From NCBI GenBank assembly GCA_025360995.1, contig JANYBD010000056.1, forward strand, positions 2,996 through 66,995: a DNA stretch of 64,000 nucleotides, given 5' to 3'. Below are positions 4,467 to 45,039 of this stretch, one piece after another (the stretch's first letter is position 1; each line of letters begins with the position of its first letter). Under the pieces are notes generated by a model that worked only from the letters and a program-made list of their open reading frames with translations, did not search any database and had not been told where the DNA came from. A program made the translations under genes and the position numbers. The DNA is from Gemmatimonadota bacterium. GTDB lineage: Bacteria; Gemmatimonadota; Gemmatimonadetes; Gemmatimonadales; Gemmatimonadaceae.

Positions 4467-4745
4467 TCAGTGGGTAATCGTGCCCTGTTTCGTCGTATCC
4501 ACATCATCTTGAGCGCCCTGACGAAACAGAAATGCTTCCATGTTCCGCATTAGGAATTGTCTGGCTTGTGGATCCATCACGTTTAAGCCGTAGTGATTGA
4601 TCAACATCGTCTGCTGTTTGAGCCAGTCCCCCCAGCAGTCTCGGCACGTGCCCTCGAGAATCCGCGCACCGATCGCGCCTGGGAATGGTGCCCGGTCAAA
4701 TGCCTCTTTCTCTTTGCCGCAGCGCGCACACGTGAGCAATGCCAT
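4467..4745 (-). CDS. yggX: Fe(2+)-trafficking / oxidative damage protection protein YggX
   Basis: 92 aa. The sequence C..C...EAFDRAPFPG..G..I......C...W..W...Q.MLINHY.LN matches the YggX family. Confidence 0.85.
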   Translation of the reverse strand: MALLTCARCGKEKEAFDRAPFPGAIGARILEGTCRDCWGDWLKQQTMLINHYGLNVMDPQARQFLMRNMEAFLFRQGAQDDVDTTKQGTITH

Positions 4746-4828
4746 GCAGGAAATCTAGACGCCCTCACGACGCCAAGCTACGGGACCGCGCTGCTGGAAC
4801 CGGACGTGTATGTCCACTATCATCGTCG

Positions 4829-5857
4829 ATGGTGAATAATGTCACGCGAGCCCCGCACCATACACCAGAGGGACGCTTTCGCAATCCGTGGCCGGGTCCC
4901 ACCGAGCACGGATTTGGCAGCCTGTTTCGATGGATACTCGACCGCGCTCGGCACGGCCGACGGCACGGCCGATTCGGCGCGCCATCGCGCGGCGTATCAA
5001 TTGCGAATTGCGAACCAGAGATTCGCCAACCGCGAGCAAATGCAAATGAATGCCGCGTGACCTGGATCGGACATTCCTCCTTTTTGCTCCAGATGGGCGG
5101 CCTCAACATCCTCACGGATCCCATGTGGGGCGACCGCGCATCACCCGTGCCGTTCGCTGGACCGCGACGGTTGATGCCGCCGGGTGTGGCGCTCGACGCA
5201 CTGCCGCCCATTGACCTCGTGCTCCAGTCACACGACCACTACGATCATTTCGACATCGGCACGGTGCGGAAACTCGTGGACCGCTTTCCGCGGGCGGCTT
5301 GGCATGTTCCGCTGGGAGTTGGAGCGTTGGCGCGCGCGCACGGTGTTACGGATATCCTCGAATACGACTGGTACGAAAGCGCGACCCTCGGCCCCGCGCA
5401 CGTGACCTGTGTTCCGGCGCGGCACTTTTCCGGCAGGTCGCTTACCGGCCGAAACAGCACACTGTGGTGTGGCTGGGTACTCACCGTCGGAGAATTTCGG
5501 ATCTATTTCGCCGGTGACACGGCATTACATCCGGATTTTGCAACAATCGCCGAGCAGTGCGGCCCATTCCATGCAGTGCTACTGCCTATTGGTGCCTACG
5601 ACCCGCGCTGGTTCATGCGTCCCGTACATCTCGATCCCGAGGAGGCGGTTGTCGCCTACGAAGCGATGGCCGCGCGCCAAGCCCATTCGGCACCGGTGAT
5701 GATCGCGATGCATTGGGGCACGTTCGCGCTCACGGACGAACCAGTCGACGAGCCGCCGGTCCGACTGCGCGCCCGATGGTCGGCCGGCCGGCATGCCGCG
5801 AACCAACTTTGGGTGCTCGCACCCGGTGAGACTCGGGCACTTCCGACGTTACCGTAA
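4829..5857 (+). CDS. MBL-fold metallo-hydrolase (NAPE-PLD-like)
   Basis: Contains HSSFLLQ...LTDPMW and the SHDHYDHFD metal motif. The ORF opens at 4739, but that start would overlap the divergent yggX start, so ATG 4829 is preferred. Confidence 0.8.
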   Translation: MVNNVTRAPHHTPEGRFRNPWPGPTEHGFGSLFRWILDRARHGRRHGRFGAPSRGVSIANCEPEIRQPRANANECRVTWIGHSSFLLQMGGLNILTDPMWGDRASPVPFAGPRRLMPPGVALDALPPIDLVLQSHDHYDHFDIGTVRKLVDRFPRAAWHVPLGVGALARAHGVTDILEYDWYESATLGPAHVTCVPARHFSGRSLTGRNSTLWCGWVLTVGEFRIYFAGDTALHPDFATIAEQCGPFHAVLLPIGAYDPRWFMRPVHLDPEEAVVAYEAMAARQAHSAPVMIAMHWGTFALTDEPVDEPPVRLRARWSAGRHAANQLWVLAPGETRALPTLP

Positions 5858-35148: not shown

Positions 35149-36442
35149 GTCGCTCGCGGCGGATCAATGCCGCGTCGCCCACATATGCCCATCGCACATT
35201 TTTCAGATACTGTTGCGCGACCCGCTGCACGTCTGATCCGGTGACGGCGCGCAATTCGTCAACAAACCGTTCACCGAAGCGAAAGTCTCCACGATACAGC
35301 TGCGCTCGCGCGAGAAAATCCGCTTGAGCCGTGCTCGTTTCATTGTCGAGGAAATACTCGGTGATGAACTGCGCCACGAGTGGACGCAAGTTCTCGGTCG
35401 GGATCGTGTGTTGCTGCAGCGCACGTACCTCATTTCTCATGAGGGCAACCGTTGTATCAGGCGCCGTGGTCGTGACATACAATCCTATTGACGTAAGACC
35501 ACGATCTCGAAAACTGGCGTTTACCGCATAAGAGAGGTTCCGGCGCGACCGAATCTCCGAGAAGAATCGCCCGGAAAGAATCGCCGCGGCCACCCGTAGG
35601 GCGGGAGCGTCACGCGAGTTTGCCGGCGGCCCAGCCATATAGCCCTGTAAATAGTTGGTCGGTAGTGGACGTCTATCATACACCACATCTCCTGGCAGCA
35701 GCGTACTAATCGAGGGCATGCTCCATCTATACGTTCCCACGGGAAGTTTACCGATCGTCGCGCGCACCAGCGCTTCAATTTTCAGGCGTGGGACGTCCCC
35801 GACGACGACAAGTAACATCCGTGACGTCACCATCTGATCGCGATGGTAGGCCTTGAGTTGCCTGAGACTAATCGAAGCAATTGATATTGGTGTTCCGACT
35901 GGCGCGAGCGCATAAGGCTGACCGGCATAGGAAATGCTATCCGCGAGATAGTCGAGGGTCGCGTCAGGGCTGTCGGTTCGCTGCCGAAGGCCGGACAACA
36001 ATTGGTCACGCACAAACTCAAACTCCGTTGAGTCGAGTGTCGGATGCATCACCCGATCCGCGAAAATCGACCAAGTGGAATCGAGTTCACTGGTAGTGGT
36101 TCGCACACCCGCCAACGTCCAGTCATCATTCGGCACGATGGCGATACCGCTCCCGGTCCGGGCCATCGCCCGACGGAGCACCGTTTTCGGATACTTCGCA
36201 GTACCGCGTTCGCTTACCTCAAGCAGCAATGCCTCAATACCGGCATTCTGCGCGGTCAACTGCCGTACGCCGCCCAGTAAATACAAATTTGCAACAACGA
36301 TCGATGTATTCGTCCGCCGTTGTATGACTTTCACGCCATTCACCTCGTATGAGGTGGTCGCTGTGTCGCGCTGGGCGTGCAACGTTCCCGAAACGCCTAC
36401 GGCGCTTAAGGCCAGTAGGGTGCTGAGAATTCTAATGATCAC
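35135..36442 (-). CDS. M16-family peptidase-like protein, non-catalytic type (no HxxEH)
   Basis: Signal peptide and M16 fold layout. It is paired with, and overlaps by 4 nt, the catalytic M16 gene. Confidence 0.75.
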   Translation of the reverse strand: MIIRILSTLLALSAVGVSGTLHAQRDTATTSYEVNGVKVIQRRTNTSIVVANLYLLGGVRQLTAQNAGIEALLLEVSERGTAKYPKTVLRRAMARTGSGIAIVPNDDWTLAGVRTTTSELDSTWSIFADRVMHPTLDSTEFEFVRDQLLSGLRQRTDSPDATLDYLADSISYAGQPYALAPVGTPISIASISLRQLKAYHRDQMVTSRMLLVVVGDVPRLKIEALVRATIGKLPVGTYRWSMPSISTLLPGDVVYDRRPLPTNYLQGYMAGPPANSRDAPALRVAAAILSGRFFSEIRSRRNLSYAVNASFRDRGLTSIGLYVTTTAPDTTVALMRNEVRALQQHTIPTENLRPLVAQFITEYFLDNETSTAQADFLARAQLYRGDFRFGERFVDELRAVTGSDVQRVAQQYLKNVRWAYVGDAALIRRERLTSF

Positions 36443-37848
36443 TGGTTCATCCCCATGGCCGCGAGCTCCGCATCGGTGAGCTTCAGCCGTTGGCGATCTT
36501 CGGTGGTCATCATCAATCCGACAATATGCGGCTTTCCAATAATGTATTTATTGGCGTAACTGTTCAGATTTGCAACCGTGCGCTTGGCCATCTCGTCATT
36601 GTATTTCATATAGTACTCGAGCCCGGACACACTCCACCAAAAACCGATCGTGTGTGATGACTCCGAACTGCGTTCAAGTCCAAACTCGGTCGTCACCGCC
36701 CTATTGGCTTTCGTCGCGTCGAGTTGGTCCTGTGTTATGTATCCGGGTTTTACGGTCTCTTTGAGTTCCGACCACAGCGCCGTCATGGCCTCGCGCAATT
36801 TGCCCGGTGATGTTTGACCACTGATGGTGATGGGTCCGATATTGTTCAGCGTGTAGTAATTCACAAGGATGCCTTGCCAGAGGCCACTGTCCACCAGCCG
36901 ACGTTGAAACCGCGACTGCTGATTGTTCAGCACGTCCGAGTACACGTCCGCCACGAAAGTCGCGGCTTCGTCCTTTCGGACGCTCGGTCCCTGCCACTGA
37001 ATAAGCACGGTCACCGCGTTCACGTTCTCCTCGACGATAACCGCATCATTCTGGGTGAGCGGCGGAATCGACGGAATCGGCGTCTTGGCAAACGGATCGT
37101 CGCCACGTTTCCAGACGCCGAACACTTTCGTCGCCATCGCGAACGCTACCTCCGGACTTACATCACCGGAAATTATCAGTACAGAATTGTTTGGGACATA
37201 ATAGAGATTGCGGATGTACCGCATTTTCTCCGGCGTCGTCGTCGCGATCACCTGCCGGTCGCCAATCACATTCTTCCGGCTCCATGCCGTCGTCCAAAGT
37301 TTCCTGCCCATTGCCGCTTCCAGTTTGAAGACCGGTTGCGATTCATTGCGGTCGTATTCGCCGATCACGACCTGGCGCTCGCGCTCCAGTTCATCCTGAC
37401 GAAAATGCGGCGCGAGAAATCCGGCGACCAAAAATTGCATGCCGGCTTCCAGTGAATCACTGCGCAAGGTGAGGAAGTAATTCACCTGCTCTTCCTTGGT
37501 GGTGGCATTGAAGACAGCACCCAACTCGGAGGCGCGCTGGATGTATGCATCCGGCTCCGGATAGGCGTCGTTGGCCTTGAAAAACATGTGTTCGTTTAAA
37601 TGCGCCAATCCTGCGTACTCGGGCGATTGGGTGAACGACCCATTCCGCACCGTGACCTCAACGGTTACAAGAGGAACTCCATGGTTTTCGACGACGACGA
37701 CTTCCAAACCGTTCGGCATCACGCGCCGCTGCATGACCCGTTCCAATTCCGCGCGTTGCGCAACAAGAGGTGCTGCCACCGAAATTATGAAGCCTGTGGC
37801 GCTGGCGAGGATGCGTAGCCGCCTGTTGATTTCCCATGCAATGATCAA
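36439..37848 (-). CDS. M16-family zinc peptidase (HLNEH active site)
   Basis: HxxEH motif in GLAHLNEHMFF. The TTG start at 37848, 4 nt after GGAGAG, gives a signal peptide (IIAWEINRRLRILASATGFIISVAAPLVAQ). The 664-aa ORF on the track would overlap murB. Confidence 0.8.
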   Translation of the reverse strand: MIIAWEINRRLRILASATGFIISVAAPLVAQRAELERVMQRRVMPNGLEVVVVENHGVPLVTVEVTVRNGSFTQSPEYAGLAHLNEHMFFKANDAYPEPDAYIQRASELGAVFNATTKEEQVNYFLTLRSDSLEAGMQFLVAGFLAPHFRQDELERERQVVIGEYDRNESQPVFKLEAAMGRKLWTTAWSRKNVIGDRQVIATTTPEKMRYIRNLYYVPNNSVLIISGDVSPEVAFAMATKVFGVWKRGDDPFAKTPIPSIPPLTQNDAVIVEENVNAVTVLIQWQGPSVRKDEAATFVADVYSDVLNNQQSRFQRRLVDSGLWQGILVNYYTLNNIGPITISGQTSPGKLREAMTALWSELKETVKPGYITQDQLDATKANRAVTTEFGLERSSESSHTIGFWWSVSGLEYYMKYNDEMAKRTVANLNSYANKYIIGKPHIVGLMMTTEDRQRLKLTDAELAAMGMNQ

Positions 37849-37863
37849 TGGACTCTCCGGCCG

Positions 37864-38808
37864 GTGATGACACCCGACGAACTGTTTCGCATACTGCGCC
37901 CCACGCTTGTCGCGGAGCGCTTGCACCAATTGGTTCCGCTGGCGTCGCTGACCACATTTAAAATTGGCGGGCCTGCCGACGTACTGTACGATGCCACATC
38001 GGCCGACGACCTCGCTAGCGCCGTTGCGACCGCCCGTACCATCGGTATCCCCTTCTTTGTACTCGGACTTGGCGCAAACGTTCTGATTGGCGATCGCGGT
38101 TTTCGCGGCCTCGTGATTCGAAACACCGCTGCACAACTTGAGTTCCCATCCGCCAATCTCGTGCGAGCTGAGAGCGGTATTGTCATAGCTGATCTCATCA
38201 AAATCACGGTGGCACGAGGGCTCTCCGGACTCGAACACTATGTGGGCATTCCAAGCACCGTCGGTGGGGCGGTCTGGCAAAACCTCCATTTCCTTTCCCC
38301 TGCCCCGGAACGCGAACGGACGATATTCATCGCCGATATTGTCGAATCCGTTGAATTGCTGACGGCGAGTGGTGAGCGCCTTGCAGTCGACCGCCAAGCC
38401 ATGCGGTTCGGATACGACACCAGTCGGCTGCATGACTCTGGCGACGTCGCGCTCGCCGTCACCTTTCGACTCACCCCGGAAGACCCTACCACGCTGCAGC
38501 GCATCATGCAGGAGAATTTAAGCTGGCGAGGTTCACGCCATCCGTGGCTTGAACATCACCCCAGTGCCGGTTCCATCTTTCGGAAGATCGAAGGAATGGG
38601 CGCCGGGCGCCTAATTGAACAATGCGGACTAAAGGGTCACCGCATTGGCAATGCGCAAATTTCTTATATTCATGCCAATATCATTGTCAATCTTGGCGGT
38701 GCGACCGCCGCGGACGTTCGAGCCCTGATCGCTACGGCACAACAATCCGTACGCGAGCGGTTTGATCAACAGCTCGAGCCGGAAATCGGATTCGTCGGCG
38801 AGTTCTAG
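37864..38808 (+). CDS. murB: UDP-N-acetylenolpyruvoylglucosamine reductase
   Basis: FAD-binding domain pattern (TTFKIGGPAD, LGLGANVL) and the MurB C-terminal domain. Confidence 0.9.
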   Translation: MMTPDELFRILRPTLVAERLHQLVPLASLTTFKIGGPADVLYDATSADDLASAVATARTIGIPFFVLGLGANVLIGDRGFRGLVIRNTAAQLEFPSANLVRAESGIVIADLIKITVARGLSGLEHYVGIPSTVGGAVWQNLHFLSPAPERERTIFIADIVESVELLTASGERLAVDRQAMRFGYDTSRLHDSGDVALAVTFRLTPEDPTTLQRIMQENLSWRGSRHPWLEHHPSAGSIFRKIEGMGAGRLIEQCGLKGHRIGNAQISYIHANIIVNLGGATAADVRALIATAQQSVRERFDQQLEPEIGFVGEF

Positions 38809-40979
38809 AAGAGTTGCCCTAGGTCAACCTGCATCTTCCACGGACCGGACCTGTCTATCGGCCGGGCAACACCGATACCGAGTGCGCCGCCAAAAAGCCG
38901 AATCCCAGCGTTCACCGACGCTCGGGCATTTCCGGTGACAACAGAAACAGGCAGTCCGTCCGCTGATGTCCCGAGTCGCTGAATTGCGGCACGCGCCATA
39001 GCATCCGACGCGCCCGTCCAGCCGGTCTGCGCGCTGAGAAAGAGCGCTGGAGACAGTGAGGGAAGCCAGAGTCTGCTGGTCAGATGAATCGGCGCATTCA
39101 ACACGTTCAATCGATACATCACCAGGCCACGCAACACAGCGGCTTGATCGCCGGCGAATTCTTTGTATCCATAGCCTGCCAAATTCTGCGTACTCCCCAG
39201 CTCGAATAGTTGTTGCGAGAGGCGGTCGCCGACCAGTGCCCCGGCATCGAAGCGACTTGCGAAAGTCCACCGGTCTTTGTTTTGGCGTGCACTGAGCCGC
39301 AATTCCACGCGCTGAAATTTCAACTCCCCGTCTCCGCGGAGATAACTCAAAGCAGCGCCAGCTCCGGTGCGCATAAACTCAGCGGCCGCATCCGGGTGCC
39401 ACTCCACGGTGATCGCCGTCCGAACATACGATCCGGCATCTACCCCTCTGTTGGGCAGAAAGTGCGTGGAGACGATCGGTCCTCGCGTCAATGTTGCCAC
39501 GGTGTTTCTGTCTTGCGCCCAGCCACTTTCAAATCGAACACGTGCCGAATTGCCTACCAGGGAACGGGTAACGGCGACTCCGGCACTGTACCGATCCACG
39601 TAGTCGTAGTCGTCGAAGCCGAACAACGCTCCGAAACTCGATCCAGAGTCCAATGGAACACGAAAATCGTTCGTGTTATCAAGTGATCGCCCAACACGAA
39701 TCGCATACGTCCAAACATTTCTGCGCAGTTCGGCGGAGATCCGGCCTCGAACCGTCCGTTCGTTCCAGGCATATCCGGCAATGACTCGTGTGGTCAATCC
39801 AGGTGCTGCGTCGCGAAAACGCGCGCTCACTCCGAGTCCGGTGAACAACCCTTCAACTCGATTGAAGCGAATCAGATCTGTCGCCCGTTCGGTTTGCAGC
39901 GTGATCACCGGCGGGCCTGAGGTGCGCCAGCGCGGAGGTGCGACATCAGCAAAGTCATCACTCGTTGCGGAGGCGGTCGCCGCACCAATATCCGAACGCC
40001 ACGCGCGGAACCGTGCAAGCGAATCCGCTGCGGCGATCCGGAGGACGTGTGGTTGCGCTCGCAGTGTGTCCTCCCGCACCACGTTGGCCGCACCGGCAAC
40101 ACTGTCTGGAGCGCTAATCTGATAATCGCGAAACCGCGACACGATGCGAAAGACGGCCTTGGCATCGCCAATAACGGGCGCCATCGCTTGCGCTTCGAAT
40201 CGTTGGTACGACGGCAGCCAGTACTGCTGGTTCACCTCGCTGTTTACCAGCTCGACATATACAACTCCTTGCAACCTCGTCGGACCCAGCAATGTGTTCA
40301 GTGGGCTGTCTGACTCGCCAGATGACGCGAATGCTCCGCGCATTCGCACGACGTTCATCCGGTCCACGTCTAGGTCGATTTCACCGCTGAAAAGAATGGT
40401 CCGGGACGGTAGCTTTGATTTCGGAATTACTTCAATGTGCACAATTCGAATTTCTCGATCACCCACCCGCAGCTTCTCGACCAAGTTTCCACCACTGTAC
40501 CGGTAGACGCGCTCACGGTCGTCTGCCAGCGGATGCACGGCGAACATCGTCCGTCGTGCGTTCGCGCCGCGCATCCCGCCGCGTGTGGTGTCGCGTCCAA
40601 AGAGTAGCGCCAAACGATTCCCATAGAGCGAGGGCACGGCCCATGAATTGCGAAGAAATCCGATCGTCGCAAACTCCAAGCCAAGTGCCTGCGCGCGGTA
40701 CCCGATTACCCGCTGCTCGAACTCTCCGGTACGAGCCCATGTCAGCGTGCTGGCCACCTGTTCGATCGACGCGGACATTTCCGCACCGCCACCGTCGTGC
40801 GTGCCAACGGAGATTTCACTTTCGAGGTTCGCGTAATAGCGCCCCAATGTTGGTGGCACACGATGGTTGATGCGGGCCGCCTCGACGACCAATGCACGCA
40901 CGGCCGCGTTGGAATACGTCGCCGTGTCAGTCGGAAGATTCGCCGCAGCCGTCTGTGCAAAAAAGAGGATCGGAAGCAT
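38805..40979 (-). CDS. Large predicted outer-membrane beta-barrel protein (function unknown)
   Basis: 724 aa. The C-terminal half alternates in beta-strand-like fashion and is rich in G/Y/R, with a terminal ...VDLGQLF (aromatic last residue). Its start codon directly follows the stop of the upstream gene (TAGATG). Confidence 0.55.
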   Translation of the reverse strand: MLPILFFAQTAAANLPTDTATYSNAAVRALVVEAARINHRVPPTLGRYYANLESEISVGTHDGGGAEMSASIEQVASTLTWARTGEFEQRVIGYRAQALGLEFATIGFLRNSWAVPSLYGNRLALLFGRDTTRGGMRGANARRTMFAVHPLADDRERVYRYSGGNLVEKLRVGDREIRIVHIEVIPKSKLPSRTILFSGEIDLDVDRMNVVRMRGAFASSGESDSPLNTLLGPTRLQGVVYVELVNSEVNQQYWLPSYQRFEAQAMAPVIGDAKAVFRIVSRFRDYQISAPDSVAGAANVVREDTLRAQPHVLRIAAADSLARFRAWRSDIGAATASATSDDFADVAPPRWRTSGPPVITLQTERATDLIRFNRVEGLFTGLGVSARFRDAAPGLTTRVIAGYAWNERTVRGRISAELRRNVWTYAIRVGRSLDNTNDFRVPLDSGSSFGALFGFDDYDYVDRYSAGVAVTRSLVGNSARVRFESGWAQDRNTVATLTRGPIVSTHFLPNRGVDAGSYVRTAITVEWHPDAAAEFMRTGAGAALSYLRGDGELKFQRVELRLSARQNKDRWTFASRFDAGALVGDRLSQQLFELGSTQNLAGYGYKEFAGDQAAVLRGLVMYRLNVLNAPIHLTSRLWLPSLSPALFLSAQTGWTGASDAMARAAIQRLGTSADGLPVSVVTGNARASVNAGIRLFGGALGIGVARPIDRSGPWKMQVDLGQLF

Positions 40980-41669
40980 CTACGTATCACTTCCAAGACG
41001 GGTAATTCGTTCCAGTCGCTCGAGTACTCGTCCGACCGCTCCAGGCAAGCGTGCCGACCATGGCAACGCGTCCAGAATCTTGAGGTCGGCATCGGGCTGT
41101 TGAATGAACTGGCTGGCAACTCCTGCCAGGAAGTTCCGTACATCGAGAGGAGCGGCGGCGATTTCGTCAACGATCGCCATGCGGCCATGCACCAGGGTCA
41201 TGATGTCGATGCAATTCTCGCGGACTCCATCGGAATGCAGTGCATCCCACCACGCAGCTGCAAGAAACGCCGGTGCGCCTGCGATTCGAATTGAGAGCGG
41301 CGGCAGAAGCTTGGCGGTCGTCGTGCAATCCAAAGCATAAGCGTACCATGGATTGCTGTACTTCGCCTCATCGTCTTCGTGAGCAGTGATCACGAGCGCC
41401 TGCCCGTTTGGTGTGCGCCAGCACTCGGTAGAGTTACGGTTGGTCGCCGGCTCCAATCCTAGGTTGCGAAGTTCCGGCCGAAGGCGATCGCGCGAGCTGT
41501 AACTGATTGCAGTGATCGGTGTGCCTGCATCCTCGGTACGGCCCGCCGACTGGTCTACCAAGAGTGGTACGGTGGCGCTGCCGATAAAGACGAGTCGATT
41601 GGCCAGAGTTGAGACTGCTCGTGCGACCTCTTCCAGCCGAAGGCGACTTGAAGCCGGGTTGTCGCTCAT
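40980..41669 (-). CDS. Hypothetical protein, possible divergent nucleotidyltransferase-fold (AbiEii/MNT-like?)
   Basis: 229 aa. The N-terminal LVFIGSATVPLLV...GRTEDAG resembles hG[GS]...D.D of minimal NTases but with the acidic pair degenerated. Its start overlaps the upstream stop (ATGA). Confidence 0.35.
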   Translation of the reverse strand: MSDNPASSRLRLEEVARAVSTLANRLVFIGSATVPLLVDQSAGRTEDAGTPITAISYSSRDRLRPELRNLGLEPATNRNSTECWRTPNGQALVITAHEDDEAKYSNPWYAYALDCTTTAKLLPPLSIRIAGAPAFLAAAWWDALHSDGVRENCIDIMTLVHGRMAIVDEIAAAPLDVRNFLAGVASQFIQQPDADLKILDALPWSARLPGAVGRVLERLERITRLGSDT

Positions 41670-42205
41670 CCGAGCCCACCGAGCCTATCGACAGTTGCTT
41701 CGAGCTTTTCGCGGATCCCTTGTTCGGCCAGGCTACGCTCCAGCGATTGACCGATTCGCAATGAGTCGGCCAACGTGAGCAATTCATAGAGCGGCGGGTT
41801 GGACGCGGCGAATTCCGCTGCCGACGAACAGAGTGGAGTTAACGACATTCCGAGCAATGTGCCGTCCGCGTGTGGCCAGACGATCGGTTCCGTGCTGGAA
41901 AGCCGGCTTGAGAGCGAAGGTGCAGAATGCGCCGTGGGAATACCAAGCGACTGGGGACCAAAGTGCGGTGGAAACGCATGCTTGAGTCCGTATTTGAGAA
42001 AGTCGATGAGACTGCTCGTGGCGACGGTACGTTTATCTGGTCTCAGAAGTGCCGCTAGCTTCAGCCTGGATACTGATGAATGGGCTTCACTGACACTAAT
42101 TCCAACCGAGCCCGCTAGTGCAGCATAGACGGCTTCAGGAGTTATTGTAAGCTGAAGTGCCACAACAACATCGATAGGTCTGCTAGATCGTTGTTTATCA
42201 GCCAT
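41666..42205 (-). CDS. Hypothetical protein with N-terminal winged-helix-like domain
   Basis: 179 aa. The N-terminus (VVALQLTITPEAVYAALAGSVGISVSEAHSSVSRLKLAALL) looks like a wHTH. It is the first gene after an AT-rich promoter region. Confidence 0.45.
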   Translation of the reverse strand: MADKQRSSRPIDVVVALQLTITPEAVYAALAGSVGISVSEAHSSVSRLKLAALLRPDKRTVATSSLIDFLKYGLKHAFPPHFGPQSLGIPTAHSAPSLSSRLSSTEPIVWPHADGTLLGMSLTPLCSSAAEFAASNPPLYELLTLADSLRIGQSLERSLAEQGIREKLEATVDRLGGLG

Positions 42206-42216
42206 TATATAATTAC

Positions 42217-42232
42217 TATTTTCTAGAAAATA
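42217..42232. promoter_or_regulatory. Perfect 16-bp palindrome TATTTTCTAGAAAATA (candidate operator)
   Basis: Read directly. It starts 12 nt upstream of the ATG at 42205. On the minus strand a TGTGAC-17-TATATT promoter-like element ends just 5' of it. Confidence 0.5.
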
Positions 42233-42399
42233 GAATATATCTTAACGCAATCTGTTGTCACATAACAGTATACACTATTTTTGGTGATTCTGACAGACAA
42301 TTTGGAAGTAGTCTGCCTCCAAGTCATTTCGGCGTTTCTAGGCAATCATATCAATTCTTCTGTTGCTCATTTGACTCCTTCGACCCACGTTCCCTGTTC

Positions 42400-45039
42400 A
42401 TGCCAATCCACCAAACTCGGACACGAATCGTGAGTTCTGCCTCGTCGGTCTCTTTCGCCCTCCTACTCCTCTTGGCTGGAGCTCGACTACCTGCCCAGTC
42501 GCCTCCTGAACAGCTCGCCGCGCACGGCGTCTCGCACGATCTCGCCAAGTTTCGCAGCCAAACCATCACGGACGTTCGGTATGACCTTCGGATGGACGTC
42601 ACTGCTTCTGATTCGGCCACCGGGCATGTCCAAATTCGCTTTCGACGAACCAGCGGCGGTGACGCGATCATCGATTTTCGAGGGCGCCGCCTGACGCGAA
42701 TCGTTGCCAACGGTATTCCGCTCGCCATGGACGCATTCAATGGCGCTCATATTCGGATTCCGTCCCGGTTACTGCGCGCCGGTGAAAACAGCGTATTTGT
42801 TGAATTTGTGGCCGACATCGCCGCAAGTGGCACGAGCATCATCAAGACCCACGACGCGTCCGACGGAAGCGACTATTTGTACACCCTCCTCGTTCCTGCC
42901 GACGCCAATCAGCTTTTTCCCTGCTTTGATCAGCCTGATTTGAAAGCGCGAGTTTCCCTTTCATTGACCGCGTCCCGCGCCTGGACTGTACTCGCAAATG
43001 GATCCGTCGCTAGCGCAGACACCTCCGGCGATCGTGTGACCACGCGATTTACGGAGACTAAGCCGCTGAGTACGTACCTCATTGCCTTCGCCGCCGGGCC
43101 GTGGCAACGCGCGACTTCGGTTGTACGCGGGCGCTCGATCAGCGTTTACGCGCGTCGTTCACGAGCAAAGGAGGCCGACCTCGACAGTCTGCTCGCACTC
43201 AATCATCGGGCAATTTCCTGGATGGAGCAGTATTTCGGGCGTGCGTATCCGTTCGAGAAATTCGATTTCCTGTTGGCGCCAGCCTTTCCGTTTGGAGGAA
43301 TGGAACACCCAGGTGCCGTCTTCTATAGCGAAGATCGGTTCATCTTCCGTGAACGCCCGACCCTGCCCCGACGACTCGGCCGCTTCTCAACCATTCTCCA
43401 CGAAGTCGCCCATCAGTGGTTTGGGGACCTCGTCACCATGAAATGGTTTGACGATCTCTGGCTAAAAGAGGGATTCGCTACGTACATGGCGGCCAAGGCG
43501 CTGAACGATCTCGAGCCGTCTAGCGATGCGTGGAAGAGTTTTCACCTCGGCAATAAGCCCGTCGCCTATGGCGTCGATCAAACCACCGGCACCACACCGC
43601 TCTGGCAAGAACTCGACAATCTCGACCAGGCTAAGAGCGCGTATGGTGCGATTGTGTACAACAAAGCGCCTTCTGTCTTGAAACAGTTGAACTACCTCGT
43701 CGGCGAAGCTGCCTTTCGATCGGGAGTTCAGCACTTTCTGGCAGCCCATTCGTACGCAAATGCAACTTGGCAGGACCTACTTTCCGCTATTGGCACTGCC
43801 GCCGGCACACCGCTCAATGCCTTTGGCAAGAACTACATGCTTCGCCCTGGTATGCCACTAGTCGAAACGCAAATCACGTTGCGTGATGGAAAAATTGATC
43901 AGCTCTTACTCGTACAATCCCCGGCACAAAGCCTCTCGGGCTCCGCAGCATGGCCGCTGAAGACTCAAATCTTGCTTGCCTATGGAGACCAGAAACCCAT
44001 CACACTGGCAGTCGAACTCTCGAAATCAATTACAAACATTGTCGCTGCCCGCGGATTGCCAGCGCCAATATTTGTTTTTCCGAATTTCGCAGACTACGGA
44101 TACTTTCTGACCTTGCTCGACAGTGCAAGCATCCGCGCACTGGAGTCCGGTGAAATCGGACGGGTCCATGATGCATTCTTGAGGGCACTGCTCTGGAGCG
44201 CCCTCTGGGATCAGGTCCGTGAAGCACGGATGGATCCAGCGCAATTCGCCAAGCTCGTTCTCGCCGAGCTACCCCAGGAGAGCGATGAGCAACTCGTACC
44301 AACACTCCTGAACCGTCTCGACCGGGCGACCCGCGCATATGTGTCAGACGGCGATCGCGAACGCATGCGCAACGATGTTGAGCGCGTACTCTGGGACGGT
44401 GCGCACGACACCCGAAAGCCCTATGGAATTCGCAAAGGTTTTCTCGATACGTTTATCCAACTCGCGACAAGCGCCGACGGACTTTCAATGGTGCGGTCAC
44501 TGCTGGCCGTCGATTCTATTGCCGGCGAACCGCTTCGCGACCCGACGCGCTGGGAGATAGTGAATCGCCTGTTAGTCGTTGGTGCGTCCGACGCGGAAAG
44601 CGCCCTGAGTACACAAACGAGGCGCGACACAACACCCGATGGGCGACGCCGCGCCTTCGTCGCCGGGGCGGCTCGGCGCTCAGCGATGACAAAGCAGGAC
44701 TACTTCAGTCGCTATTTTGCCGACAAGAATCTCAATGAAGATTGGGCATCAGGAAGTTTGGGAACATTCAATGCCGTCGAACATCAGCATCTTACCCTGC
44801 CATTTCTTCGCGCCGCCCTGGATTCACTTCCCTACATTCAGGCAAACCGTCGCATTTTTTTTCTGGGTAGTTGGCTGGGCGCGTTTCTCGGCGGACAAGG
44901 AAGTGACGCCGCGCTAGAGATCGTTCGGCGCTTCCTCGCAGAACATCCGGCCCTTCCAAAAGATTTGCGCCAGAAAGTCCTGCAAAGCACCGATGAACTC
45001 GAGCGAACTGTGCGAATTCGCGCTCACTGGCAACATTAA
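42400..45039 (+). CDS. pepN: M1-family aminopeptidase N
   Basis: Contains GGMEHPG, HEVAHQWFGD and WLKEGFATY. Has an N-terminal signal sequence. Confidence 0.9.
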   Translation: MPIHQTRTRIVSSASSVSFALLLLLAGARLPAQSPPEQLAAHGVSHDLAKFRSQTITDVRYDLRMDVTASDSATGHVQIRFRRTSGGDAIIDFRGRRLTRIVANGIPLAMDAFNGAHIRIPSRLLRAGENSVFVEFVADIAASGTSIIKTHDASDGSDYLYTLLVPADANQLFPCFDQPDLKARVSLSLTASRAWTVLANGSVASADTSGDRVTTRFTETKPLSTYLIAFAAGPWQRATSVVRGRSISVYARRSRAKEADLDSLLALNHRAISWMEQYFGRAYPFEKFDFLLAPAFPFGGMEHPGAVFYSEDRFIFRERPTLPRRLGRFSTILHEVAHQWFGDLVTMKWFDDLWLKEGFATYMAAKALNDLEPSSDAWKSFHLGNKPVAYGVDQTTGTTPLWQELDNLDQAKSAYGAIVYNKAPSVLKQLNYLVGEAAFRSGVQHFLAAHSYANATWQDLLSAIGTAAGTPLNAFGKNYMLRPGMPLVETQITLRDGKIDQLLLVQSPAQSLSGSAAWPLKTQILLAYGDQKPITLAVELSKSITNIVAARGLPAPIFVFPNFADYGYFLTLLDSASIRALESGEIGRVHDAFLRALLWSALWDQVREARMDPAQFAKLVLAELPQESDEQLVPTLLNRLDRATRAYVSDGDRERMRNDVERVLWDGAHDTRKPYGIRKGFLDTFIQLATSADGLSMVRSLLAVDSIAGEPLRDPTRWEIVNRLLVVGASDAESALSTQTRRDTTPDGRRRAFVAGAARRSAMTKQDYFSRYFADKNLNEDWASGSLGTFNAVEHQHLTLPFLRAALDSLPYIQANRRIFFLGSWLGAFLGGQGSDAALEIVRRFLAEHPALPKDLRQKVLQSTDELERTVRIRAHWQH

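Follow-up and report, generated by a model that had tools for sequence, protein, structure and literature searches.

A degenerate, probably domesticated AbiE-like gene pair at a housekeeping locus in Gemmatimonadaceae

The subject of this report is a pair of overlapping genes, here denoted A and B, which lie with a following gene of 724 amino acids (aa) in a 64,000-nucleotide (nt) stretch of DNA (the window) from a Gemmatimonadota bacterium of the family Gemmatimonadaceae (GenBank assembly GCA_025360995.1, contig JANYBD010000056.1, positions 2,996 to 66,995 of the forward strand). An original prediction, made from the sequence alone, had described a winged-helix and nucleotidyltransferase-like pair resembling an AbiE-type toxin–antitoxin or defence system, coupled to a gene for a β-barrel protein. 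The family resemblance is borne out by the analysis described here, but a working toxin–antitoxin or defence pair is unlikely, as B lacks at least five residues conserved in its family and all 14 of the orthologues examined at the same locus are degenerate. The reading which we favour, with moderate confidence, is that of a domesticated, catalytically dead AbiE-like module fixed at one chromosomal locus.

Gene layout and protein families

The genes and regulatory features are collected in Table 1, with coordinates given as positions in the window; A, B and the 724-aa gene are all on the minus strand. The stop codon of A and the start codon of B share the ATGA at 41666–41669, and the TAG of B is followed directly by the ATG of the 724-aa open reading frame (ORF) in the TAGATG at 40977–40982, both junctions being as originally predicted. 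A 194-nt AT-rich spacer separates A from the divergent pepN, and the low GC content claimed for this region is equally apparent (0.41–0.42 at 42000–42449 versus 0.55–0.62 in the surroundings). A defence-island setting was rejected, the neighbours in the window being M16 peptidases, murB, pepN and terC. For the second M16 peptidase, the longest ORF (36439–38433, minus strand, 664 aa) overlaps murB (37864–38808, plus strand) by about 570 bases; its relatives align only from about residue 210, and translation probably begins well downstream of the ORF start, near 37800.

Table 1. Genes and predicted regulatory features of the A–B locus
Feature	Position	Strand	Description
Gene A, 179 aa	41666..42205	-	PDC-M21A family: N-terminal MarR/Lrp-like winged helix (~residues 4–78) and conserved C-terminal domain
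Gene B, 229 aa	40980..41669	-	PDC-M21B family, degenerate sub-clade; AbiEii/MenT-fold (DUF1814-type) nucleotidyltransferase-like, degenerate active site
724-aa gene	38805..40979	-	Essentially genus-restricted; weak DUF5686/Omp85-like leads; abuts B, convergent with murB at its end
Predicted sigma-70-type promoter of the A–B(–724) unit	42234..42261	-	GTGACA, 16-nt spacer, TATATT; 10/12 consensus, pattern match only
Perfect 18-bp palindrome	42216..42233	.	CTATTTTCTAGAAAATAG; core TTC-NN-GAA, 9-bp arms; candidate operator for A

Neither A nor B matched a Pfam or NCBIfam family when the window proteins were scanned (for B there was none in Pfam at E ≤ 1). Both match the two PADLOC models of the system denoted PDC-M21, viz. 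PDC-M21A for A (E 6.3e-29, 99.1 bits, residues 29–169 on profile positions 57–203 of 205) and PDC-M21B for B (E 1.1e-17, 62.5 bits, residues 11–223 on profile positions 11–229 of 234), and to this extent the claim of an AbiE-like pair is upheld.

For B, a profile built on 10 close homologues matched 1904 representatives when the cutoff was set at E ≤ 1e-3; of these, 743 reached E ≤ 1e-10 and 20 reached E ≤ 1e-30. When 60 B-family representatives were scanned with the Pfam family AbiEii (PF08843), 17 matched at E ≤ 0.01 and 10 passed the 22.5-bit cutoff; since window B itself has no match where these relatives pass, its membership of PF08843 is transitive only. A profile of 91 B-family sequences matched MenT1 (8an4) at E 4.1e-5. 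A Foldseek search with the predicted model of B (pLDDT 90.7, pTM 0.89) returned 17 matches at E ≤ 1e-3, those to JHP933, MenT3, 5uvd and MenT1 ranking first; the top hits, with MenT4 (E 7e-3) included, span E 2e-5 to 7e-3 and TM-scores of 0.4–0.59. On the profile match to MenT1, the Foldseek hits and the PF08843 matches of its relatives, B as modelled has the polymerase-β-type nucleotidyltransferase (NTase) fold of AbiEii and MenT, with a C-terminal helical domain, which agrees with the resemblance first noted from its sequence.

A word-index search found 48 homologues of A, one of them labelled Gemmatimonadales, the order to which the assembly appears to belong. HTH_24 was matched by 17 of 43 aligned homologues, and in VIA-align 70 residues of the predicted model of A (pLDDT 92.5), all lying within residues 8–78, align with MarR-family chains at Z 8.6 and an rmsd of 3.0, which substantiates the winged helix proposed for this protein. 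Seventeen columns are invariant in the family alignment, all of them kept by window A, and the C-terminal part carries the conserved motifs GVPTAHSAP, VWP and LYELLTLVDALR. The whole model found nothing in Foldseek at E ≤ 0.001, a wide VIA-align search with it returned winged-helix matches only (residues 4–78), a PDB sequence search gave no match beyond the helix–turn–helix, and residues 72–179 fell in the Atlas only among unnamed clusters, at 0.89–0.90. AbiEi families are absent from the 25 listed of the 26 Pfam families matched by the 43 homologues.

The active site of B across the genus

The motif columns of B were read from the 91-sequence alignment of the family, in window B numbering (Table 2). 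Motif I, hG[GS], is present in window B as F-I-G30-S31, Ser being permitted at the second G position (PMC3985639). Motif II (DhD) and the third carboxylate are absent (D47-A-G49 and V93), as are the conserved Lys and Arg (A139 and D147). In motif IV (+DxxD) the family has [H/R]-D152-L-E-D155 and the window E-N-C-I-D155, i.e. it has lost both the positive residue and the first of the two Asp. The pattern of an hG[GS] stretch followed by a broken DxD pair, which the original prediction had pointed out, is thereby confirmed, the family having GG...T-x-D-V-D and the window GS...T-E-D-A-G.

Table 2. Conserved positions of the B family and their state in window B
B position	Family residue (91 sequences)	Window B
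30	G 91/91	G
31	G 75/91	S
45	T 83/91	T
47	D 76/91	D
49	D 79/91	G
93	D 79/91	V (sole V in alignment)
139	K 75/91	A
147	R 71/91	D
150	S 76/91	R
152	D 77/91	N
154	E 74/91	I
155	D 88/91	D

Published mutagenesis of two relatives allows these losses to be put in functional terms. In the profile alignment, T45-x-D47-x-49 of B falls on the T-R-D-V-D loop of MenT1 and K139 on the MenT1 lysine of ‘IAMKLL’; B positions T45, D47, 49 and K139 would then correspond to MenT1 T39, D41, D43 and K137, if the published numbering is taken to differ by one residue from the chain index. The K-to-R spacing of seven in the B-family consensus equals the 173/180 spacing of AbiEii, and the counterpart of AbiEii D192 is either D152 or D155. 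In MenT1, D41xD43 holds Mg2+, T39 is the auto-phosphorylation site, and the D41A and K137A variants have lost nucleoside triphosphate binding, NTase activity and auto-phosphorylation (PMC11375011), while in AbiEii the D67A, D69A, D67E, D69E, K173A, R180A and D192A variants are all non-toxic (PMC3985639). As window B carries several substitutions whose equivalents singly inactivate AbiEii or MenT1, it is, on homology and this mutagenesis, very unlikely to be an active toxin.

The conservation of the pair was surveyed in one order, using 41 genomes: the window genome (G000, an assembly of 2.5 Mb, 83.5% complete), 24 others of the same genus and 16 of two other families. B was found in 18 of the 24, at 25–37% identity except in G013 (77%), and in three of the 16. 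Eight window proteins were then mapped on 26 further loci. Sixteen loci, that of the window included, are syntenic, i.e. flanked by pepN and/or by murB-M16-M16, and all of them have A followed by B. Their flanking proteins are 65–77% identical to those of the window, A 38–48% and B 25–36% (G013 aside). With the non-syntenic copies included, A and B are adjacent in 21/21 loci (the window, L009–L026, L032 and L033).

All 14 of the syntenic orthologues examined are non-canonical at B positions 31/47/49/93/139, where their states include RADDD, PADDE, RRDDL, VLHVW, IPVVY and ILTLW, and three are degenerate at every position scored. The non-syntenic copies L017, L021, L022 and L025 have the canonical GDDDK, and L026 has canonical N-terminal motifs and a truncated B; L032 and L033, which are 68–70% identical to L013, lie outside the motif scoring. 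Against the PADLOC PDC-M21B model the canonical copies score 111–132 bits and the syntenic copies 23–62 bits. In a quick maximum-likelihood tree of 108 rows (L026 dropped, fused proteins cut to their last 235 residues), a branch with SH-aLRT 98 separates the 74 canonical rows from all 14 syntenic rows and the other degenerate metagenomic representatives. The catalytic residues have been lost differently by lineage, with R128, D155, R163 and E169 kept in B, and a canonical PDC-M21 cassette coexists with the degenerate pair in at least one genome (G008). One syntenic locus (L023) comes from the unpublished genome G006; it supplies a single row to each of the motif, MurB-identity, tree and substitution-rate sets, and no conclusion rests on this genome alone.

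At the canonical locus L017 (G035:C1), an IS110-family transposase (DEDD_Tnp_IS110, E 5.6e-25; 4485–5522, minus strand) lies about 2.4 kb from the PDC-M21 pair; the other four canonical loci are set among unrelated metabolic and transport genes, with no defence genes recognised there.

The junction of the two genes is itself conserved. Among the 18 loci L009–L026, the end of A overlaps the beginning of B by four bases in 13 and by one base in two, a 7-base gap lies between them in one, and the genes form an in-frame fusion in two, of 429 aa in G014 (L014, G014:C5, 8009–9298, minus strand), which matches both PDC-M21A and PDC-M21B, and of 417 aa in G012 (L015, G012:C1). At least four A–B fusions (P0087, P0069, P0074 and P0110) occur among 150 listed representatives, all of them non-canonical, and of 163 sequences scored none of the 118 canonical ones is fused to A. 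Such joining of toxin to antitoxin, seen solely among copies with a degenerate toxin, is in keeping with a non-toxic complex in which the two cooperate; a predicted complex of A with B scored 0.30 and 0.24, against a mark of 0.32, and is evidence neither way.

The degenerate pair is under purifying selection, with ratios of non-synonymous to synonymous substitution rates (dN/dS) of 0.11–0.25. Between the window and G013 the values are 0.106 for A and 0.123 for B, and 0.059–0.125 for six flanking genes; four further pairs gave 0.14–0.25 for the two genes (apart from A of L016/L020, for which saturated dS left no estimate), and the fused gene of G014/G012 gave 0.187. The identity of B tracks that of MurB (Spearman 0.55; the 91 pairs, drawn from 14 loci, are not independent), so the locus appears to be inherited largely with its flanks while its amino-acid sequence evolves several-fold faster.

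The promoter region and the 724-aa gene

A scan of 38400–42500 found three sigma-70-like sites (1.7 expected), all at 42232–42296, of which the promoter in Table 1 scores best, and no promoter-like site between A and the 724-aa gene. The palindrome of Table 1 stands directly downstream of the -10 box and ends 10 nt before the ATG of A. Twelve of 19 loci have the exact form TTCNNGAA (TTC-NN-GAA) in the 60 nt that precede A, and the remaining seven have near-matches. For comparison, the exact form is present in 96 of 4600 background windows of 60 nt taken from these loci, and shuffling gives on average 0.34 of 19 (maximum 3, in 1000 shuffles). The core varies by locus (TTCTAGAA, TTCATGAA and TTCGCGAA) yet stays palindromic, and the half-site is repeated on each side in most loci. 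Negative autoregulation via inverted repeats at the promoter has been described for AbiEi (PMC3985639), and by analogy the conserved palindrome after the -10 box suggests autorepression by A, which would bind it. An operator regulon was rejected: the window 18-mer is unique in the 2.5-Mb assembly at up to three mismatches, with none before the 724-aa gene. A terminator-like hairpin, TTGGAGGCAGACTACTTCCAA with a T-containing tail, lies at 42302–42322 (minus strand) in the pepN spacer, upstream of the predicted A promoter; terminator-like hairpins are no commoner than in shuffles (3 found, 3.9 expected).

Matches to the 724-aa protein at E ≤ 1e-100 are confined to the genus, in 18 of the 24 genomes (one a 39% paralogue and one a contig-end fragment), and elsewhere in the order there are weak matches only (E ≥ 5e-12). 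The protein begins with a short hydrophobic segment and ends in Phe, and it has no sequence match in the PDB. Searches against PF01103, PF03865 and PF18939 gave only sub-threshold DUF5686 matches, in four of eight orthologues (E 0.007–0.05; cutoff 39.2 bits), and the Atlas neighbours of the protein are Gemmatimonadota clusters with Omp85, ShlB or DUF5686 in 12–25% of members. These are only weak leads towards the outer-membrane barrel that had been proposed. Paralogues at 37–39% identity occur away from the pair (L034, i.e. G006:C254, unpublished; G023:C19:34179–35441), indicating that the family has been duplicated within the genus, and in L011 (G002:C109, 5561–7867) the orthologue is in two pieces about 175 bases apart (query residues 22–127 and 134–724), which may reflect an insertion or frameshift.

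The coupling of this gene to the pair, which the original prediction singled out as an oddity, is real and recurs in the genus, but it is facultative, each partner occurring without the other. The next gene after B is that for the 724-aa protein in 12 of the 16 syntenic loci and in none of the five non-syntenic (canonical) ones. In five of 10 junctions examined it abuts or overlaps B (TAGATG in the window, GTGA in L012, ATGCTGA in L013, L016 and L020), and in four there is a gap of 59–76 nt; the tenth (L010), where an ATG overlapping the B stop is out of frame with the tblastn hit, was counted in neither class. As the gene abuts B in the window, and as no other promoter-like site follows A, it is probably transcribed from the promoter of A, and A, B and the 724-aa gene probably form one operon in the window genome. 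Among the sequencing runs searched, seven DNA runs from three studies contained the stretch in whole or in part, and no RNA run did.

In four of the 16 syntenic loci (G011, G015, G001 and the unpublished G006) the pair is present with no 724-aa gene beside it. Conversely, the 724-aa gene stands beside murB without A or B in G021, G016 and G022, every A and B variant having been used as a query; in these genomes it lies 10–13 nt behind a TAT-signal peptidase-like gene. It is also present at other sites in G009 and G015. The linkage is thus a recurrent, genus-specific arrangement required by neither the pair nor the 724-aa gene. Directly upstream of the 724-aa gene in L028 (G021), L030 (G016) and L031 (G022) there is a protein of 449–466 aa with a twin-arginine-type signal (MTTRRDF...), ending in ...ENGAELFTPQSPSLEKPFAT, and the same protein is found upstream of A in L011, L019 and L024; from its position the pair looks like an insertion, with that gene (or pepN) on one side and either murB or the 724-aa gene on the other.

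These data bear on an account which treats A, B and the 724-aa gene as a single functional unit, the pair serving as a dedicated regulator or sensor of a 724-aa envelope protein, or B acting on or with it. The frequency of the arrangement, the five tight junctions and the want of a promoter-like site after A are all in keeping with this, as is the faster change of the 724-aa protein relative to the flanks (51–64% versus 65–77% identity in relatives). We nevertheless consider it unlikely, as pair and 724-aa gene each occur without the other, four junctions are gapped, the palindrome is found once in the genome and not before the 724-aa gene, and no canonical locus has a 724-aa neighbour.

Interpretation and comparison with known systems

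A second account would keep the pair as a working AbiE/MenAT-like toxin–antitoxin or abortive-infection system, in which B is an active toxin with an unusual site and A its antitoxin and autorepressor. The PDC-M21 matches of both proteins would suit it, PDC-M21 being a candidate embedded in known defence systems (bioRxiv 10.1101/2024.01.29.577857), as would the bicistronic layout with its 4-bp overlap and promoter palindrome, which are as in AbiE (PMC3985639), the retention of motif I, T45 and D47, and the fast divergence and raised dS of the pair. Yet G49, V93, A139, D147 and N152 stand at conserved positions, where single changes of the equivalent DxD Asp or Lys abolish activity or toxicity, even D-to-E in AbiEii (PMC11375011, PMC3985639). 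Degeneracy extends to all 14 locus orthologues, in three of them to every scored position, the neighbourhood is one of housekeeping genes (M16 peptidases, murB, pepN and terC) inherited with the pair, and A–B fusions are found only in the degenerate class; an active toxin–antitoxin pair is, on balance, distinctly improbable. Least probable of all is a decaying remnant without present function, its frames open by chance, for which the lineage-specific loss of catalytic residues and the fast divergence might be cited, but which sits badly with dN/dS of 0.11–0.25 in every pair with an estimate, frames intact in 21/21 loci save for the short B of L026, a conserved 4-bp overlap, 17 invariant columns in A, and retention of the pair across a genus in which identity of the flanking proteins has fallen to 65–77%.

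The favoured reading, a domesticated and catalytically dead module, would run as follows. The pair would derive from a mobile cassette of two genes, of the PDC-M21 type (an AbiE/MenAT-like toxin–antitoxin module), and would have become fixed in the chromosome. A would be a winged-helix repressor which most likely binds the TTC-NN-GAA palindrome after its own -10 box and autoregulates the unit. B would keep the AbiEii/MenT fold, having lost the second carboxylate of the DxD pair, the third carboxylate, the phosphate-binding Lys and Arg and the first Asp of +DxxD, and these losses, judged by homology and the published mutagenesis, would make it a pseudo-enzyme rather than a toxin, kept intact by selection and fused to A in some relatives. 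A and B would probably act together as a non-toxic complex, with B e.g. as partner or co-factor of the repressor, and this is the weakest step of the scheme. The 724-aa gene would be read through from the promoter of A in the window genome, as lineage-specific wiring outside the module itself.

Several observations weigh against this reading. Motif I (G30-S31) and T45 are intact in window B, and its closest relatives (72–86% identity) mostly keep D47, E49 and E93, which implies that the carboxylate triad was lost only recently in the window lineage; residual or altered chemistry in the degenerate clade is conceivable. The binding of A to B, like that of A to the palindrome, is a proposal of ours, and the C-terminal domain of A is of unassigned fold; a new fold is not claimed. 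Between the window and G013, dS is 1.2–1.27 for A and B versus 0.55–0.87 for six flanking genes, about twofold higher; defence loci show allele exchange or balancing selection, and the difference may be a hint of either, or may reflect older alleles, recombination or local mutation bias. Divergence as fast as that seen here (B at 25–37% identity, the flanks at 65–77%) would also be expected from an arms race.

A bolder extension of the domestication reading is that the dead NTase and the former antitoxin have been exapted as an obligate two-part transcription switch which gates the envelope-protein gene in this genus. We put this forward tentatively, with more doubt than conviction, and if true it would be a case of a toxin–antitoxin cassette turned into a host regulatory module and welded into one polypeptide in two genomes. 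As a variant, the dead toxin may be an ‘anti-addiction’ decoy which blunts incoming canonical PDC-M21 cassettes.

AbiE/MenAT nucleotidyltransferase toxins have been studied as growth-arresting toxins and phage defences, and PADLOC would flag the window locus as a defence candidate; the present case cautions that a profile match to a defence candidate is not the same as active defence. The natural series from canonical to partly degenerate, fully degenerate and fused forms also offers a tractable setting in which to follow a toxin fold after its toxicity ends.

Considering how the pair relates to systems already described, the nearest is PDC-M21 itself (PADLOC-DB v2, PDLC04515/PDLC04516), where A and B match both models near full length, adjacent and in the same order, but where window B scores 62.5 bits against the 111–132 of canonical copies in related genomes and is without the conserved catalytic residues. 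The phage defence candidates of the PDC series are 145 untested systems found embedded in BREX, DISARM or type I restriction–modification loci (bioRxiv 10.1101/2024.01.29.577857); the name PDC-M21 was not met in the literature searched, and the supplementary tables of that preprint may describe it.

AbiE (AbiEi/AbiEii), a type IV toxin–antitoxin and abortive-infection system, resembles the pair in being a bicistronic operon whose promoter carries inverted repeats, and in encoding first a winged-helix protein that has a further domain and then a DUF1814-type NTase of polymerase-β fold (PMC3985639). It differs in that A has no sequence match to AbiEi families (among 25 of 26 Pfam families listed) and that window B falls below Pfam AbiEii and departs from motifs II, III and IV. 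With the AbiEi antitoxins (COG5340) A shares the winged helix, and kinship of the C-terminal part was not found by sequence.

The closest solved relatives of B, by profile (MenT1, E 4.1e-5) and by fold, are the toxins of MenAT1 and MenAT3 (MenT1 8an4/8an5, MenT3 6y5u). The T-x-D-x-D loop of MenT1 aligns with that of the family, whose T45 falls on the auto-phosphorylated T39 (PMC11375011). MenT toxins, however, are active tRNA nucleotidyltransferases, whereas window B has Gly and Ala at the equivalents of D43 and K137, and the MenA1 antitoxin was unrelated to A by any test run. JHP933, a DUF1814 protein of Helicobacter pylori (4o8s/4ok0), provides the top Foldseek matches of B (E 2e-5 to 4e-5, TM-score 0.40–0.50), but at 14–15% identity and with no paired winged-helix gene in the comparison made, this is a resemblance at the level of fold only.

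In the literature searched, at the level of listings, no description was found of a dead genus-wide version of such a system, of A–B fusions or of coupling to an envelope gene. An AbiE/MenAT-like system of the PDC-M21 kind is thus already known, while a dead version maintained by selection at a housekeeping locus appears, as far as these searches show, to be new.

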